Shown here one piece after another: positions 1-6,502 of a stretch of DNA of 6,502 bases (position 1 is the stretch's first letter; the number at the start of each line of letters is the position of its first letter). Source of the DNA: a virus (Duplodnaviria; Heunggongvirae; Uroviricota; Caudoviricetes). Under the pieces are notes generated by a model. The model did no database searches. It was not told the origin of the DNA and saw only the letters and a list, made by a program, of their open reading frames with translations. Location: the IMG/VR virus record IMGVR_UViG_2778261247_000010. The stretch is one strand, 5' to 3'. The translations under genes were made by a program, and so were the position numbers.

Positions 1-2142
1 GAAGGCTCCAGACCAGGTACGCTGAATGATTTTCTCGGTGCCATGACGGAAGATGATGTCATGCCGGAGGCATTGCGTCGTTTTGAGGCAATGGTGGAAG
101 AAGTGGCACGCAACGCCGAAGCCGCCTCTCAGAGCGCAGCGGCGGCAAAGAAATCCGAAACTGCAGCGGCATCATCAAAGAACGCGGCGAAAACCTCAGA
201 AACGAATGCAGCTAATAGTGCACAGGCGGCAGCGACCTCAAAGACTGCATCGGCAAACTCCGCGACAGCAGCCAAAAAATCAGAAACCAACGCGAAAAAT
301 AGCGAGACAGCCGCAAAGACGAGCGAAACCAACGCAAAGTCCAGCCAGACGGCAGCGAAAACCAGCGAAACGAATGCCAAAGCCAGTGAAACTGCGGCAA
401 AAAACAGCCAGGTTGCAGCAGCCCAAAGCGAGAGCGCGGCAGCCGGTTCTGCGACTTCAGCAGCTGGATCAGCAACTGCTGCGGCTAACAGCCAGAAAGC
501 TGCGAAGACGAGTGAAACTAACGCAAAGTCCAGCCAGACGGCAGCGAAGACCAGCGAAACGAATGCCAAAGCCAGCGAAACTGCGGCGAAAAACAGCCAG
601 GTTGCAGCAGCCCAAAGCGAGAGCGCGGCAGCTGGTTCTGCAAGCGCGGCGGCTGCTTCTGCCACTGCATCAGCCAACAGTCAAAAAGCGGCAAAAACCA
701 GTGAAACCAATGCAAAGACAAGCGAGACTGCAGCGGCGAACTCGGCGAAAGCATCGGCAGCAAGCCAGACGGCTGCAAAAGCAAGTGAAGACGCAGCCAG
801 AGAGTATGCAAGCCAGGCTGCGGAGCCGTATAAACAAGTATTGCAGCCGCTTCCCGATGTGTGGATACCGTTTAACGATTCACTGGATATGATTACGGGC
901 TTTTCGCCGTCATATAAAAAGATTGTTATTGGTGATGATGAAATAACGATGCCTGGCGATAAGGTTGTAAAGTTTAAACGCGCATCAAAAGCAACTTACA
1001 TTAATAAATCTGGTGTGCTGACAGAGGCTGCCATTGACGAGCCACGATTTGAACGTGATGGCCTGCTTATTGAGGGGCAAAGAACAAACTACATGCTCAA
1101 TTCGGAAAACCCTGCCAGTTGGGGGCGATCGTCAAATATGGATGTTCCCGAAACCGGGAAGGATAGTTTTGGTTTTACCTATGGAAAGTTCGTCTGTAAC
1201 GATTCTCTGATTGGGCAAACCTCAGCCATTAATATGGCATCAATTGCTGCAACAAAGTCAGTTGATGTCTCAGGCTATAATAAATACGTGACAACCTCAT
1301 GTCGTTTTAAAACAGAACTGCAGGTAAGGTTGCGTATCCGGTTTGATAAATATGACGGTAGCGCAACAACTTTTCTTGGTGATGCGTATATTGATACACA
1401 AACGCTTGAAATTAATATGACAGGCGGTGCTGCCTCAAGGATTACAGCGAGAGTCAGAAAGGACGAAGCTACCGGATGGATTTTTGCAGAGGCAACAATT
1501 CAGGCAATTGATGGGGAGTTAAAAATAGGTTCTCAGATACAGTATTCTCCTAAGCAGGGCGGGGCAACCGTATCTGGTGACTATATTTATCTGGCCACCC
1601 CACAAGTAGAAAATGGGCCTTGTGTATCATCTTTTATTATATCAGGAACGACGGCGGCGACCCGCGCAAGCGATATAGTTACAGTTCCCATTAAGAATAA
1701 TCTTTATAATCTTCCTTTTACGGTTCTTTGTGAGGTACATAAGAACTGGTATAAAACGCCAAATGCAGCGCCGCGTGTTTTTGATACCGGCGGTCATCAA
1801 ACCGGAGCGGCTATTATTCTTGGGTTCGGATCTGCGGCAGATGGGCCAGACGGATTTCCTTATTGCGATATTGGAGGAGCTAACAGACGGGTAAACGAAA
1901 ACGCATCGCTTGAAAAAATGGTTATGGGGATGCGTGTAAAATCAGATCAGTCTACGTGCTCAGTAAGTAACGGGCGCATATCCAGCGAAAAAAAGACTAC
2001 GTGGTCCTATATTCAGAACTCTGCAACCATCCGTATTGGAGGCCAGACTACAGCAGGGTCACGTCATTTATTTGGTCATATCAGGAATTTCAGAATATGG
2101 CATAAGGCATTGACTGATGCTCAGGTGGGGGAGTCAATCTAA
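1..2142 (+). CDS. stf: Side tail fibre protein (Stf-like), 5'-partial: Ala/Ser/Thr-rich repeat shaft plus C-terminal LamG/ConA-like lectin-type domain
   Basis: Frame +1 has no stop from base 1 to the first ATG at 43, so the gene very probably starts upstream of the window (translation from base 1: EGSRPGTLNDFLGAMTEDD...). Nt ~43-830 encode a low-complexity A/S/T/K-rich shaft with reiterated KTSETNAK and AAKNSQ motifs typical of phage tail-fibre repeat regions. The C-terminus (...GSRHLFGHIRNFRIWHKALTDAQVGESI) has the characteristic ending of LamG/ConA-like lectin domains (inference). Stop TAA at 2140-2142. Confidence 0.88.
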   Translation, partial: EGSRPGTLNDFLGAMTEDDVMPEALRRFEAMVEEVARNAEAASQSAAAAKKSETAAASSKNAAKTSETNAANSAQAAATSKTASANSATAAKKSETNAKNSETAAKTSETNAKSSQTAAKTSETNAKASETAAKNSQVAAAQSESAAAGSATSAAGSATAAANSQKAAKTSETNAKSSQTAAKTSETNAKASETAAKNSQVAAAQSESAAAGSASAAAASATASANSQKAAKTSETNAKTSETAAANSAKASAASQTAAKASEDAAREYASQAAEPYKQVLQPLPDVWIPFNDSLDMITGFSPSYKKIVIGDDEITMPGDKVVKFKRASKATYINKSGVLTEAAIDEPRFERDGLLIEGQRTNYMLNSENPASWGRSSNMDVPETGKDSFGFTYGKFVCNDSLIGQTSAINMASIAATKSVDVSGYNKYVTTSCRFKTELQVRLRIRFDKYDGSATTFLGDAYIDTQTLEINMTGGAASRITARVRKDEATGWIFAEATIQAIDGELKIGSQIQYSPKQGGATVSGDYIYLATPQVENGPCVSSFIISGTTAATRASDIVTVPIKNNLYNLPFTVLCEVHKNWYKTPNAAPRVFDTGGHQTGAAIILGFGSAADGPDGFPYCDIGGANRRVNENASLEKMVMGMRVKSDQSTCSVSNGRISSEKKTTWSYIQNSATIRIGGQTTAGSRHLFGHIRNFRIWHKALTDAQVGESI
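313..641 (+). repeat. Intragenic in-frame tandem duplication (two ~140-bp copies, period 189 bp) inside the tail-fibre shaft
   Basis: Copy 1 ~313-452 and copy 2 ~502-641 differ at about 7 positions by eye, all at synonymous third-codon positions (agc/agt, acc/act, aaa/aag, gca/gcg, gcc/gct). Both encode the identical 48-aa block AAKTSETNAKSSQTAAKTSETNAKASETAAKNSQVAAAQSESAAAGSA. Confidence 0.9.
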
Positions 2143-2423
2143 TGAAAGATTTAACACTCAAATTTGCAGACAGGGCCGACTTTTCGGCCTTTATGGAGAG
2201 CACTGGCTATTATGATGACGAGTCGATGCAGGATAATATTCTTATTGACGTGATAGGTAACGTGTACAAAGAAACCGGAGAACTGACTGAAGATGGCGAA
2301 CCGGTATGTGTTAAGGAAGACGGATATTTTGTAAACGTGCGCATCATTAATGATGCAAAAAAATCGTCAATATTCGATAAATACGAGGTTGTTGTTGAGC
2401 ATCAACTTCGTGGCTGGATGTGA
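2142..2423 (+). CDS. Hypothetical small acidic protein (93 aa), translationally coupled to the tail-fibre gene; possible fibre accessory or assembly factor
   Basis: ATG at 2142 shares one base with the upstream TAA (cTAATG). SD GGGGGAG at 2127-2133 with 8-nt spacer. Product is D/E-rich with no hydrophobic segment. No family recognised from sequence alone. Stop TGA at 2421-2423 lies 9 bp before the next gene. Confidence 0.7.
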   Translation: MKDLTLKFADRADFSAFMESTGYYDDESMQDNILIDVIGNVYKETGELTEDGEPVCVKEDGYFVNVRIINDAKKSSIFDKYEVVVEHQLRGWM

Positions 2424-2432
2424 GGGAGACAA

Positions 2433-3473
2433 ATGGCTACATCGACAGTAATTCCTGATGACATCAAAACGCTAAAATCCGACGTTAGCAAATTAAAAAA
2501 CGATCAAGGAAGCTACGCAACAAAATCATATGTAGACAGCAAAGATGAAACCGTTGGTGACTGGTCTGCTTCATGGTATCAGCAGGTATTGCCAACTAGC
2601 GGAGCTATATTTGGGAGAAAACTCCGCTCAACTCACAGGACGGCAGGTGTTGAGGATGCGTATTGCGAACTATATCTCAAAAAATGGATAGACAGTCCAG
2701 GTAACGCAATGGCGCGCCTTAACCTGAACGATAACGGGAAAAACATTTGCTGGGACTTTACCAACCTTTATGGCGGTACGATGATTTTTCCCGGTGACAG
2801 CGGATACCTCAAAATGGGTAACTGCCTTATGTCATACAGCAAACGTGGAAGTAACGCGCTTATTAAATTTGATTACACCGACACATTACAGATCAAATAT
2901 GCTAATCATGGGTCAACCATGACATTAACCACACAGGGATCCGCTCACGCTGGCGTAACAACTAGACTATGGGGTAATTCTAGCCGTCCGGTTGTTTATG
3001 AAGTTGGCGTAGATGAGGCTCTGTATATGTTCTACGCACAGAAAACTACCAGCAATACCTACGAATTAACGGTTAACGGCGCGTGCAATGCAAGTGCATT
3101 TAATCAAGGCTCTGACCGGGATCTGAAAGACAATATTCAGGTGATCGATAATGCAACCGACCGCATTCGTAAAATGAACGGCTATACATACACGCTTAAA
3201 GAAAACGGTATGCCTTACGCTGGTGTTATTGCACAAGAAACCCTGGAAGCCATCCCCGAAGCCGTAGGGTCTATGATGAAATATCCAGACGGCGGGAGTG
3301 GATTAGATGGAGAAGAAGGTGAACGGTATTACACAGTAGATTATTCTGGTGTTACTGGCTTGCTTGTTCAGGTAGCCAGAGAGTCGGACGACAGAATAAC
3401 AGCACTGGAAGAAGAAAACGCAGAATTAAGACAAAGATTATCTGCAATTGAGGCGGCGCTTGCGTCTAAATAA
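2433..3473 (+). CDS. Tail fibre/tailspike-like protein with C-terminal self-cleaving intramolecular chaperone domain (peptidase S74-like)
   Basis: SD GAGGGAG at 2422-2428, ATG at 2433. From Ser227 (nt 3111) the sequence G-S-D-R-D-L-K-D-N-I-Q-V-I-D-N-A-T-D-R-I-R-K-M-N-G-Y-T-Y-T-L-K...AGVIAQE...PEAV shows the Ser/Lys dyad spaced five residues apart (S227, K232) and downstream motifs typical of the S74 chaperone domain of endosialidases and L-shaped tail fibres. Ends in a coiled-coil-like segment ITALEEENAELRQRLSAIEAALASK. The N-terminal ~226 aa would be the mature fibre part. Confidence 0.75.
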   Translation: MATSTVIPDDIKTLKSDVSKLKNDQGSYATKSYVDSKDETVGDWSASWYQQVLPTSGAIFGRKLRSTHRTAGVEDAYCELYLKKWIDSPGNAMARLNLNDNGKNICWDFTNLYGGTMIFPGDSGYLKMGNCLMSYSKRGSNALIKFDYTDTLQIKYANHGSTMTLTTQGSAHAGVTTRLWGNSSRPVVYEVGVDEALYMFYAQKTTSNTYELTVNGACNASAFNQGSDRDLKDNIQVIDNATDRIRKMNGYTYTLKENGMPYAGVIAQETLEAIPEAVGSMMKYPDGGSGLDGEEGERYYTVDYSGVTGLLVQVARESDDRITALEEENAELRQRLSAIEAALASK

Positions 3474-3478
3474 TATTA

Positions 3479-3502
3479 AGGGGCCGAGCGCCCCGTTTTA
3501 TT
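3479..3502 (+). terminator. Rho-independent terminator after the fibre operon
   Basis: GC hairpin GGGGC-cgagc-GCCCC (3480-3494) followed by GTTTTATT, immediately after the TAA stop at 3471-3473. Confidence 0.6.
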
Positions 3503-3515
3503 GGGTAGGATGAAA

Positions 3516-3803
3516 ATGGATATAACACCTTTCCTTCATGCACTTTGTGCTGTGGCTGCGCAGCTACTGATTGGTCTTTTTACCGGGAACTGGGCTTACG
3601 GGGCGATAGCCGGTTGTACGTTCTTCATTGCGCGTGAACACACCCAGGCAGAATATCGCTGGATTGAAATGTTCGGGCATGGCAAGCGTATGAATATGCC
3701 GTGGTGGGGCGGTTTTGATCTACGCGCGTGGGATGTAGCAAGCCTGATGGATTTTGCTGTGCCGGTGGTGGCGTGTTTACTTGTATTTATATTTTTTGAA
3801 TAA
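3516..3803 (+). CDS. Small integral membrane protein (~95 aa, three predicted hydrophobic helices); moron-type accessory gene candidate
   Basis: The ORF track begins at TTG 3501 (MGRMKMDIT...). ATG at 3516 preceded by AGGA (3507-3510, 5-nt spacer) is the better supported start; ATG 3510 is also possible. Hydrophobic segments FLHALCAVAAQLLIGLF, AYGAIAGCTFFIA and LMDFAVPVVACLLVFIFF. No family recognised. Stop TAA at 3801-3803. The gene is bracketed by hairpin terminators on both sides. Confidence 0.65.
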   Translation: MDITPFLHALCAVAAQLLIGLFTGNWAYGAIAGCTFFIAREHTQAEYRWIEMFGHGKRMNMPWWGGFDLRAWDVASLMDFAVPVVACLLVFIFFE

Positions 3804-3808
3804 AATTA

Positions 3809-3835
3809 AGACCCCATCTATAACTGATGGGGTCT
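3809..3835. terminator. Bidirectional intrinsic terminator between convergent genes (membrane-protein ORF and sopB)
   Basis: Perfect 10-bp stem AGACCCCATC (3809-3818) / GATGGGGTCT (3826-3835) with 7-nt loop TATAACT. T-rich runs follow on both strands (ATTCTATTTTCT on +; TAATTTTATT on -). Sits between the + strand stop at 3803 and the - strand sopB stop at 3852-3854. Confidence 0.8.
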
Positions 3836-3851
3836 ATTCTATTTTCTGCTA

Positions 3852-4841
3852 TTAGTTATTTTTTACATCGGAAGAATTTCCAAACGCCTCCTCAAGAATA
3901 GATTCAATTTTACTCATTAGGTGCGATGGTATTTTTCTGTTATCTAATTTTAATGTTGTGAAATTTTTCCCATATTTCGCCACAACACCGTCTCCATATT
4001 TCTTTTCCCTTTTCTCTCCATGTGAATTGTTTTTCTCAACAATAATGAAATCATGAAGAGCCTGTATTATTCTTTGCGCATCTAAACTTTCACCTGATTT
4101 TTTCATCCTCAGCAACTGAGATGCAGCATTTTTCATGGCTGCTTCCTGTCCCTGATATGCTTTAAAAAGAGCGTCTCCTGCTCTGGCTGATAACTCACCA
4201 GGATGGTTAAATATTGCCAATATATCTTTAGGTAAACCGGCTGTATTAATACATCGGCTGATAATATTTCTATCCACGCCTTCGGCTTCAGCTAAAGATT
4301 TTACGTTACCGTCAAATTCATGGAGCCTTCGCAGGTATCTTTTCCCCCTTTCATAGGCGCTGATAGGTCTATAGTCGTTGCCTATCTGCGATAACCATTG
4401 CATTTGTTCATCATCTAAATCGCCAATAAGAACACGATAATCGCATCCAGTTATAATGGCTGCTTTACGTCTTCGAGAACCATCAGCTACTTCAACAATA
4501 CCTGACACTTTTCTTGCGAAAGCCGGATTTTGTTGCCCAGAAGTTAGAAAAGATGGAATTAAATCAGCTAGAGAAGATTCATTTAATAAATCTTGATCAC
4601 GCTCATTACCTAGCCATACCATTGTTGCCATTTCTACTTTATCTGCGGGGATCGTCTCTAACTTAAAGTTAACATTACGTCCGCATACTGGCAAAGTTAT
4701 GCTATTACCGGTTAATGAACTCAGTTGACGTTTTAAATCACCAACCATAGGTGATACCGGCTGATGTTCAGGTGCATGATGATTATTACTCATAATGCGA
4801 TTAATATCCGGAGCATTTTTTAGAAGAGAGCGTTGTTTCAT
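3852..4841 (-). CDS. sopB: Plasmid partition protein SopB (ParB family, F-type centromere-binding protein)
   Basis: 329 aa. By-eye similarity to F-plasmid SopB over conserved blocks (GNERDQ.LL.E..L.DLIPSFL.TGQQ.PAF.R.VSG..E.ADGSRRRKAA; GNDYRP.SAYERG.RY; RCINTA.LPK...A.F.HPGELSAR.GDAL.KA). SD GGGAG 8 nt upstream of the start. ATG at 4839-4841 overlaps the sopA stop (ATGA, 4838-4841), implying translational coupling. Confidence 0.95.
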   Translation of the reverse strand: MKQRSLLKNAPDINRIMSNNHHAPEHQPVSPMVGDLKRQLSSLTGNSITLPVCGRNVNFKLETIPADKVEMATMVWLGNERDQDLLNESSLADLIPSFLTSGQQNPAFARKVSGIVEVADGSRRRKAAIITGCDYRVLIGDLDDEQMQWLSQIGNDYRPISAYERGKRYLRRLHEFDGNVKSLAEAEGVDRNIISRCINTAGLPKDILAIFNHPGELSARAGDALFKAYQGQEAAMKNAASQLLRMKKSGESLDAQRIIQALHDFIIVEKNNSHGEKREKKYGDGVVAKYGKNFTTLKLDNRKIPSHLMSKIESILEEAFGNSSDVKNN

Positions 4842-6007
4842 TCTTCGTTCTCCCAGCGAGGTTTTATTAGATCATCAAAAATTTCTCGACAAACAGGGTC
4901 CCATATAGAGACGGCATTTCTCCATGCATTAAGTGTTGAACGCTGGTTTGCCGCTTGTTCAAATACTGTTCGCATTTTTATCTGACCTTTACCTACTTCA
5001 TCGGTAACGCGTACAACCTGACGTAATACCATTGATCCCCATGTATTTCTTATTTGCTCTTCCATCCATCGTGATTGATTTCCTGTAGTGAGACTATATT
5101 TAGTCAGAAGCAAGCGAACGGTCGGCTCAAATCCGCCTAGGTCAACGCTTTCTAGGAGATCGAGAAGCATTGTGAAAAACTGTAGAACAGAGGCGTAATC
5201 AAATAATTCTGCAGGGGTAGCAACAACGATAACGTCAGCTGCGCAAACAACGTTAATGGTTCCTGTACCGAGGTTTGGAGCACTATCTATAACGATAACA
5301 TCGTAGTTATCCCAAACTGATTCTATAGCTGCGCGTAGCATCAGGTGAGGAGGGTGAGGCAATTTACCCTGAGCATGATATTGCATGAGATCTGTTTCTA
5401 TACGGTGTAAAGCTAGGCAGCTAGGAATAATGTCCAGTCCAGGCCAGCATGTTGGTTTTATAGCATATTCAGCGTTATCGCGTTCGCCCAAGTAAAATGG
5501 CAGTAAAGTATCCTCGGCATGTATATGTAAATCAGGTACATAACCGTGATACATGGAGGCTGTTCCCTGAGGATCGTTACCTTCAACTAAAAGAACACGA
5601 TGACCTTGTAATGCTAGCCATTGTGCCTGATGTACTGCAGACGATGTTTTATAAACTCCGCCTTTGTGTGACATAACAGCAAGCACAACTGGGTTTTTAT
5701 CTTGTGGCCGTTGGTTTGGGTTGCCAAAAACAGCTCGCATACTATTGATTTGATCTATGGTATAACCGGCACGACGTTCAACTCTTCCTCTCATTTCAAA
5801 GTCAGGTGCAGGTAAACGCCCGTTCTTCTCAGCATCTCTTATTGCTTGAGGAGTTACACCAATTAAATCTGCTACTTCAGTTATCCCCCATCTACGCGTG
5901 ATACGCCGAGCTTCAGGACTATCATCACCGAATTGAGCTATAGCAATTGCTTGGGTCATTTCTTGACCGCGCGTAACACAATCTTGTAATAACTTTTTCA
6001 AAGACAT
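4838..6007 (-). CDS. sopA: Plasmid partition ATPase SopA (type Ia ParA with N-terminal HTH autoregulatory extension)
   Basis: 389 aa. Deviant Walker A KGGVYKTS, A' region VLLVEGNDPQGTASMYHG, Walker B DVIVIDSAPNLG. N-terminal region ...AIAIAQFGDDSPEARRITRRWGITEVADLIGVTPQAIRDAEKNGRLP... is near-colinear with F SopA as recalled. SD GGAG (minus strand, + coordinates 6016-6019) 8 nt before the ATG at 6007. Confidence 0.96.
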   Translation of the reverse strand: MSLKKLLQDCVTRGQEMTQAIAIAQFGDDSPEARRITRRWGITEVADLIGVTPQAIRDAEKNGRLPAPDFEMRGRVERRAGYTIDQINSMRAVFGNPNQRPQDKNPVVLAVMSHKGGVYKTSSAVHQAQWLALQGHRVLLVEGNDPQGTASMYHGYVPDLHIHAEDTLLPFYLGERDNAEYAIKPTCWPGLDIIPSCLALHRIETDLMQYHAQGKLPHPPHLMLRAAIESVWDNYDVIVIDSAPNLGTGTINVVCAADVIVVATPAELFDYASVLQFFTMLLDLLESVDLGGFEPTVRLLLTKYSLTTGNQSRWMEEQIRNTWGSMVLRQVVRVTDEVGKGQIKMRTVFEQAANQRSTLNAWRNAVSIWDPVCREIFDDLIKPRWENEE

Positions 6008-6028
6008 ACTGTCATCTCCAGCTTATAA

Positions 6029-6106
6029 CTTTGCTTAATAATTATTGCTTTGCATATTTCTAGCAAATTGACATAGAAAAAGCAAAGTAAAACAAAAAAG
6101 GCAAAG
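6029..6106 (-). promoter_or_regulatory. sopAB promoter/operator: four CTTTGC hexamers (SopA autoregulatory motif) in dyad arrangement
   Basis: CTTTGC on + at 6029-6034 and 6048-6053; CTTTGC on - (GCAAAG on +) at 6082-6087 and 6101-6106. Spacing is 19 bp within each pair and the whole set is exactly symmetric about 6067/6068. Candidate sigma70 hexamers on the minus strand lie among them (TTGCTA at 6061-6066 as -35; an A/T hexamer around 6038-6043 as -10); exact hexamers uncertain. In F, SopA represses sopAB through repeated CTTTGC motifs overlapping the promoter (established knowledge). Confidence 0.55.
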
Positions 6107-6294
6107 ACGAAGATTTGAACAAAATCATCTTTTGTTTTATCCCTTAAATGCAAAAAAAAACAACGACAAGATCATAACAAATTGATAATAAAGGATTTTT
6201 TAAAAGAAAGGAAATCGTATAAAACTAGTGAAACATGATGAAAATCATCAATGAGATACGTTTCCTCTATTTATTCTCCTAATCCTCACCAACA

Positions 6295-6437
6295 AAAGAA
6301 CACAATCAAAGATCGTAAAACAACAATAATAATTCACACAAAATAAAGAACACAAATACAGAAAACAACAACACAATAAAAACAAGAGAACACAAGCTAT
6401 AAATATTACACCAATAGAGAACACTAATCAAGAACAT
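6295..6437 (+). repeat. Array of phased GAACAC(A) direct repeats in an A+C-rich tract flanking the telomere-resolution palindrome (candidate protelomerase or accessory binding sites)
   Basis: GAACACAA at 6298-6305, 6348-6355 and 6388-6395; GAACAC at 6419-6424; GAACAT at 6432-6437, the last inside the palindrome arm. Start-to-start spacing is 50, 40, 31 and 13 bp. The + strand of ~6288-6426 is roughly 80% A+C by eye. Confidence 0.7.
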
Positions 6438-6502
6438 ATCAGCACATAATTTCCCATTATACGCGCGTATAATGGGAAATTATGTGCTGATATGTTCTTG
6501 AT
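6427..6502. other. Telomere resolution site (tos/telRL-like protelomerase target): perfect 76-bp palindrome
   Basis: Arms 6427-6464 (ATCAAGAACATATCAGCACATAATTTCCCATTATACGC) and 6465-6502 are exact reverse complements, centred on ACGCGCGT. The core TATCAGCACAtAATTtCCCATTATACGCGCGTATAATGG closely matches the N15 telRL as I recall it, with the central telO-like segment identical. The palindrome reaches the last base of the window. Confidence 0.8.

Follow-up and report, generated by a model that had tools for sequence, protein, structure and literature searches.

The 6,502-nucleotide stretch of viral DNA analysed here over its full length (IMG/VR record IMGVR_UViG_2778261247_000010; hereafter the window) carries a sopAB operon homologous to the partition genes of plasmid F and phage N15. 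With a probability of about 0.9, we read it as an ordinary N15-type Sop operon served by a dispersed centromere: single GTGCGACCNNGGTCGCAC palindromes spread over the opposite arm of the replicon, none of them lying beside the genes. The operon has the gene content, motifs, operator and terminator of such a system, no SopB-type site was found in the window, and inverted repeat (IR) sites in matching synteny are present in the closest complete relatives.

The sop operon and its flanks

At 100% identity, window positions 3777-6475 match the right-hand end of the Escherichia phage PhiR46_1 genome (PV340565.1), whose record was deposited as a complete phage genome in linear-prophage orientation and carries an annotated telR site at its end. 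Relatives are 97-98.5% identical over the whole window, the value of 98.5% being reached by the E. coli plasmid CP088430.1 and by a segment of the YDC107 'chromosome'. The sop-to-telomere part shares about 74-77% nucleotide identity with N15, phiKO2 and related telomere phages of Klebsiella and Enterobacter. On the strength of these matches we place the window at the telR end of a linear E. coli phage-plasmid that resembles N15 and belongs to the PhiR46_1 lineage with its lambda-like virion genes. As in N15, sopB and sopA lie beside the telomere site of a protelomerase-dependent linear prophage. Gene assignments were concordant across Pfam, PHROGs and NCBIfam, and no Rfam families were found in the window.

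Both open reading frames (ORFs) of the operon are intact, encoding proteins of 389 (SopA) and 329 (SopB) amino acids. They overlap by four nucleotides (ATGA), and this overlap of the sopA stop with the sopB start would imply translational coupling. SopA, a type Ia ParA ATPase, carries a deviant Walker A motif (KGGVYKTS) and is extended at its N terminus by a winged helix-turn-helix (HTH). It reaches 734.2 bits (cutoff 725) against the NCBIfam SopA equivalog NF010259, covering profile positions 1-387 of 388, and matches AAA_31, CbiA and, at residues 42-68, a MerR-like HTH in Pfam. SopB belongs by family to the ParB centromere-binding proteins and has an arginine box (GSRRRK) and a SopB-type HTH. 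It scores 405.5 bits (cutoff 274) against the NCBIfam Sop-type ParB model PRK13698 and 123.9 bits against TIGR00180 (parB_part), and matches Pfam SoPB_HTH with an E value of 1.6e-23 and the SopB structure PDB 3mky with an E value of 5.8e-39. A ParA with a winged-HTH extension, which serves autoregulation in this family, and a ParB with arginine box and HTH, which together characterize type Ia ParABS/Sop systems, are thus both present. The original prediction had stressed the close resemblance of sopAB to the F genes. This resemblance is real (75% amino acid identity for SopA, 50% for SopB), yet the proteins are much closer to those of N15, with 93% identity between SopA and gp28 and 74% between SopB and gp27.

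Compared with N15 and phiKO2, the proportion of nonsynonymous differences (pN) is 0.04-0.05 for sopA and 0.16-0.17 for sopB, while that of synonymous differences (pS) is 0.76-0.88 and saturated. The low pN together with the saturated pS indicates functional genes that have diverged for a long time under purifying selection. Note that the pS values exceed 0.75, the level of Jukes-Cantor saturation, despite 93% protein identity of SopA. A separate observation concerns codon usage. Third positions of sopAB are strongly shifted towards AT, with a third-position GC content (GC3) of 29.7% in sopA and 27.3% in sopB; the corresponding values are 51.8 and 49.6% in N15, 43.6 and 48.5% in phiKO2, and 41.6 and 34.3% in F. 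In PhiR46_1, the telomere-proximal 2-kb ends are AT-rich (38% and 29% GC) compared with 49.5% GC for the genome.

Upstream of sopA lies the predicted sop promoter with a putative SopA operator. On the sopA sense strand, three direct boxes are separated by 13-bp spacers: CTTTGC at 6101-6106, CTTTGC at 6082-6087 and, with one mismatch, aTTTGC at 6063-6068. The last two direct boxes each have an inverted GCAAAG partner exactly 28 bp downstream, at 6048-6053 for the second box and at 6029-6034 for the third. The hexamer columns are invariant in a promoter alignment of the window, N15, phiKO2 and F, and the 13-bp and 28-bp spacings are the same. This is the overlapping inverted-repeat operator of SopA/ParA-F, the layout of which has been described for F, N15 and phiKO2 (PMC8465637).

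The interval of 48 bp behind sopB had been claimed to hold only a bidirectional terminator, and this description is accurate. Its hairpin folds at -18.8 and -21.3 kcal/mol (z scores of -5.6 and -6.6), no shuffled sequence folded as well, and T-runs flank it on both strands. Placed between sopB and a convergent ORF of 100 amino acids, it is a predicted bidirectional terminator for the convergent transcripts of the tail module and the sop operon.

Searches for a centromere in the window gave negative results throughout. Tandem Repeats Finder detected no tandem array in or beside the sop operon, in full agreement with the earlier statement that 43-bp repeats are lacking. In a positive control on F, the same program recovered sopC as 10.7 copies of 43 bp starting 88 bp after sopB; published counts for sopC are 10 (PMC7205306) or 12 (PMC3597684) copies. 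Besides the coding repeats of a tail-fibre gene, the only tandem repeat in the window was a weak, AT-rich one of 13 bp close to the telomere. When up to three mismatches were allowed, neither the F-type palindrome TGGGACCNNGGTCCCA nor the N15-type palindrome GTGCGACCNNGGTCGCAC had a match in the window, and directly 3' of sopB there is no tandem 43-bp sopC array with TGGGACCNNGGTCCCA. The reported absence of a TGGGACC/GGTCCCA inverted repeat holds as well, with the small correction that a single half-site, GGTCCCA, occurs at 4897-4903 inside sopA. We rejected it as a site because 0.94 occurrences are expected by chance and no inverted repeat is formed. A general scan for compact perfect palindromes returned only GCATCATTAATGATGC (2341-2356) and the telomere palindrome. 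The former was likewise dismissed, as the number of palindromes is within shuffle expectation and this one lies inside a conserved small ORF.

Probable partition sites in the complete relatives

The Sop system of N15 comprises sopA (gene 28), sopB (gene 27) and the sites IR1-IR4 (Ravin & Lane 1999, as cited in PMC7205306 and PMC3235114), and its dispersed centromere-like sites are treated as established (PMC3235114, PMC7205306). All four IR sequences (PMC7205306, Table 4) contain the core GCGACCNNGGTCGCAC, and IR2-IR4 correspond to the full GTGCGACCNNGGTCGCAC; we recovered them in the N15 genome at 33479, 35930, 41124 and 45561. The palindrome GTGCGACCNNGGTCGCAC was found five times in PhiR46_1 (Table 1), with a single mismatch in one of the five; pEC21Z151-46K and one unit of CP088430.1 likewise contain five copies each. 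The sites are located 7.9-18 kb from the left telomere, on the arm for replication, regulation and lysis. The arm with the virion genes and sopAB has no GTGCGACCNNGGTCGCAC site in PhiR46_1, pEC21Z151-46K or CP088430.1, the nearest being more than 25 kb away from sopB. The five dispersed sites in each of these three relatives, none of which is near sopAB, thus corroborate the original prediction of an N15-like centromere away from the operon. This prediction had also proposed scanning the replicon for short palindromes related to F sopC. Such palindromes do exist in the relatives, but they are of the N15 type (TGCGACC) and not of the F type (TGGGACC), and PhiR46_1 has no F-type TGGGACCNNGGTCCCA site.

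Four of the site contexts match those of N15 IR1-IR4 and of the four 'putative plasmid partitioning sites' annotated in phiKO2. The IR3 equivalent precedes a late-promoter-like element at 14790-14818, which is followed by a terminator at 14855-14875. The suggestion that partition sites may double as regulatory elements has a counterpart in this site, which stands about 20 bp before the late-promoter-like element just as its equivalents do in N15 and phiKO2, yet the idea is not new. The fifth site has no N15 or phiKO2 equivalent. In PhiR46_1-type replicons, this site and the IR4 equivalent are identical palindromes spaced by 220 bp; they enclose a conserved non-coding segment that has the DUF4406 gene on one side and the next ORF on the other (17793-18030 in PhiR46_1). 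The same site spacings of 3040 bp and 220 bp were seen again in IMG/VR contigs. In IMG/VR, at least 157 exact GTGCGACCNNGGTCGCAC-type sites occur in at least 120 loci; sites in the matches listed are at least 220 bp apart, with a median distance of 3.7 kb, and none of these 120 loci has an F-type site. From this spacing we conclude that dispersed single sites are the rule in the N15-type family. By extrapolation from the relatives, one of which is identical over the sop-to-telomere region, the same IR sites would be expected on the window's own replicon.

The proposed explanation for partition is as follows. SopB dimers would bind single 16-18-bp palindromes (GTGCGACCNNGGTCGCAC), and the five scattered IR sites, 7.9-18 kb from the left telomere, would nucleate partition complexes. 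Nucleoid-bound SopA-ATP would then position these complexes such that each daughter cell receives a copy. SopA, with SopB as co-repressor, would repress the operon at the CTTTGC/GCAAAG operator, and the bidirectional terminator would insulate the operon from the tail genes. An IR just upstream of the late promoter would fit the facilitation of late gene expression attributed to the N15 Sop system (Ravin, Rech & Lane 2008, as cited in PMC11652158). In this scheme, binding of SopB to the IR sites and partition activity are inferred by homology with F and N15.

The arrangement shares with N15 the order and orientation sopB-sopA-telomere, the terminator after sopB, the lack of an adjacent array, the hexamer layout of the SopA operator, the 18-bp palindrome GTGCGACCNNGGTCGCAC and, in the window's relatives, four sites in equivalent places: within repA, behind Q, ahead of the late promoter and beyond the lysis region. 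The N15-like assignment of the original prediction is supported. The differences from N15 are minor and include a SopB that is only 74% identical and a SopA that is 93% identical, GC3 values of 27-30% versus about 50%, five sites in the closest complete relatives, the extra one 220 bp from the IR4 equivalent, versus four, a 100-amino-acid membrane ORF as the neighbour of sopB where N15 has the umuD-like gene 26, and the lambda Stf-like tail-fibre module. With phiKO2, the system shares the architecture, the site sequence GTGCGACCACGGTCGCAC, the synteny of the sites and the DRN motif in the recognition helix of SopB; it differs in the proteins (about 75% identity for SopB, about 93% for SopA) and in the host genus, and phiKO2 has four sites. 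Features in common with F are homologous SopA and SopB proteins, a sopA-sopB operon and an operator of CTTTGC hexamers. The SopB palindrome of F differs by one base per half-site, and F has a 43-bp repeat array with TGGGACCACGGTCCCA 88 bp downstream of sopB. Nothing like it is adjacent to sopB here, and the sites of the relatives are single, dispersed and of the TGCGACC type.

No new question is opened by the arrangement, which is already known: the dispersed centromere is established in N15 and equivalent sites are annotated in phiKO2. It is mainly a matter of annotation, as the N15 pattern tells where the cis-acting partition sites are. In the inspected records of PhiR46_1 and of E. coli plasmids, the genes are labelled only ParA/ParB or SopA and the centromere sites are unmarked, and several of these records show the replicon as circular or even chromosomal. 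Knowledge of the site positions is useful for mini-replicons, linear vectors, incompatibility predictions and the interpretation of SopB chromatin immunoprecipitation. Centromere palindromes are also easily mis-annotated. The N15 RefSeq entry labels the IR4 palindrome (45561-45578) as the stem-loop of a 'putative rho-independent terminator' (45560-45584), and the PhiR46_1 IR at 18012-18031 scored as terminator-like in a consensus terminator scan.

Specificity of SopB and competing explanations

Specificity determinants all reside within residues 177-198 of F SopB and 179-200 of N15 SopB, and a single base per half-site, beside the contact of a conserved arginine, distinguishes the two centromeres (PMC2910045). 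N15 and phiKO2 have the half-site TGCGACC, F has TGGGACC. The corresponding segment of the window's SopB, GNVKSLAEAEGVDRNIISRCIN, is N15-type: the conserved arginine is flanked by D and N (DRN) in the window, N15 and phiKO2 and by S and K (SRK) in F. The DGSRRRK arginine box and the other DNA-contacting arginines are invariant in the SopB alignment. Two positions of the recognition helix vary, being IS in the window, VN in N15 and IT in phiKO2. Identical specificity of the window's SopB and N15 SopB is likely.

Several points weigh against the interpretation as an N15-type operon with dispersed sites. The location and number of IR sites on the window's replicon are extrapolated from relatives beyond the 6.5 kb at hand, and IR binding and replicon stabilisation in the PhiR46_1 lineage would be carried over from F and N15. 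Moreover, SopB is only 74% identical to its N15 counterpart and differs at the two recognition-helix positions, so that the same specificity can be called no more than likely. A cryptic centromere of another type within the window would be an alternative, residing either in the AGAACACWA repeats upstream of the operon or in the palindrome of the terminator. These repeats are enriched (four found, 0.29 expected by chance) and adjoin the operon, and some par systems do have their centromere upstream of parA. However, the repeats resemble neither SopB half-site. In both PhiR46_1 and N15, GAACA-type repeats also stand, inverted, on the telN flank of the telomere, an arrangement that fits TelN accessory repeats (PMC12624138). 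The hairpin behind sopB has typical terminator anatomy, and the N15/phiKO2-type specificity segment of SopB is matched by IR sites elsewhere on the replicons of the relatives. We therefore consider a cryptic centromere very improbable.

Even less credible is a SopB of F-type specificity acting on an F-type sopC (TGGGACC) that lies elsewhere or is carried by an F-like plasmid in the same cell. The identities of 75% and 50% to the F proteins would be compatible with it, and the specificity of N15 SopB is reportedly relaxed, so that F sopC is bound as well (PMC7205306). Yet TGGGACCNNGGTCCCA is absent from the window, from PhiR46_1 and from the 120 related viral loci among the matches listed, and the residues beside the conserved arginine are those of N15 and not those of F. 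The least plausible of the explanations is a decaying sop remnant that has lost its centromere, with the replicon being maintained by other means. It would account for the missing cis site beside sopAB, and the relatives do encode a RelE/ParE toxin-antitoxin module that could take over. Such a remnant is hard to reconcile with two intact, overlapping ORFs that retain all catalytic and DNA-binding motifs, with a conserved operator architecture and pN far below pS, with IR sites conserved in number and position across the relatives, or with an identical operon in the complete phage genome deposited for PhiR46_1.

Within the N15-type interpretation, the PhiR46_1 lineage might form a distinct sub-branch of Sop systems, marked by five sites including the 220-bp pair and by AT-recoded sopAB genes (GC3 about 28%) in AT-rich telomere-proximal DNA. 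We regard this as rather unlikely. Should the 220-bp pair or the AT-rich surroundings (through H-NS binding, for instance) alter the coupling of partition to the expression of late or lysis genes, this would be a modest variant of the known link between Sop and late gene expression in N15.

Telomere, accessory repeats and neighbouring genes

Table 1 Features of the window and IR sites of PhiR46_1.
Replicon	Feature	Position	Strand	Remarks
Window	Side tail fibre gene	43-2142	+	lambda Stf-like
Window	Small conserved ORF	2142-2423	+	
Window	Second tail-fibre gene	2433-3473	+	Peptidase_S74 chaperone domain
Window	Membrane ORF	3501-3803	+	100 amino acids
Window	Interval 3' of sopB	3804-3851		48 bp
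Window	Putative bidirectional intrinsic terminator hairpin	3809-3835	both	AGACCCCATC-7 nt-GATGGGGTCT; stem 10 bp, loop 7 nt
Window	sopB	3852-4841	-	
Window	sopA	4838-6007	-	
Window	Non-coding stretch	6008-6430		28% GC
Window	Predicted sop promoter and SopA operator	6029-6106	-	CTTTGC hexamers
Window	Four AGAACACWA repeats	6297-6426 (6297, 6347, 6387, 6418)	+	in the 28% GC spacer between sop promoter and telomere
Window	Protelomerase target palindrome (telomere)	6427-6502		long, perfect; centre between 6464 and 6465; 457 bp from sopA start codon
PhiR46_1	IR1 equivalent	7931		within repA, about 370 bp from the start of the gene
PhiR46_1	IR2 equivalent	10374		about 200 bp after Q gene
PhiR46_1	IR3 equivalent	14753		6 bp after gp51 homologue, about 20 bp before late-promoter-like site
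PhiR46_1	IR4 equivalent	17793		after DUF4406 gene (lysis region)
PhiR46_1	Extra site	18013		220 bp beyond 17793, just before next ORF; no N15/phiKO2 equivalent

The telomere palindrome matches the telR site of PhiR46_1 and is homologous to telRL of N15. Its perfect arms reach the very end of the window, and the last 11 nucleotides mirror the left flank, unlike the telL flank of PhiR46_1 (ATGTTCTTGAT versus TTTCAGAACAA). Such a terminal palindrome would be expected from assembler read-through of a hairpin telR or from a telRR replication junction, and not from a true telRL junction. The same artefact is seen in public records: YDC107 (NZ_CP025707.1) contains a mirror duplication sopA-tel-sopA within its 'chromosome', and the 91.5-kb 'circular' record CP088430.1 consists of two inverted copies of 45.8 kb.

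Alongside the AGAACACWA repeats, AGAACATAT adjoins the telomere core. PhiR46_1 has inverted TTGTGTT copies on its telL side, and telRL of N15 is flanked by similar GAACA repeats. Such an arrangement, symmetrical around the telomere, is in keeping with published TelN accessory repeats (PMC12624138), and the AGAACACWA repeats are probably degenerate TelN accessory (L/R) repeats that are not part of the sop system. For N15, where the published precedent is cited in PMC12624138, 'at least two' copies are reported; the copy number in the PhiR46_1 lineage seems to be higher.

The tail-fibre part of the window is a mosaic with 94-98% identity to many lambdoid prophages. Between 264 and 735, the first tail-fibre gene contains 189-bp tandem repeats (2.3 copies, 85% matches) with nested periodicities of 42 bp and 21 bp. 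At the protein level they correspond to the 'KTSETNAK' repeats, rich in Ala, Ser and Thr, in the N-terminal region of Stf. It is mainly here that the window and PhiR46_1 differ (74% coverage), which makes the region a likely hotspot of repeat-number variation. The hydrophobic 100-amino-acid ORF between the tail-fibre module and sopB belongs to PHROG 1443 (function unknown) and has no Pfam match. In N15 and phiKO2, its position is occupied by a umuD-like gene, and in many integrated lambdoid prophages the ORF accompanies the tail-fibre module.

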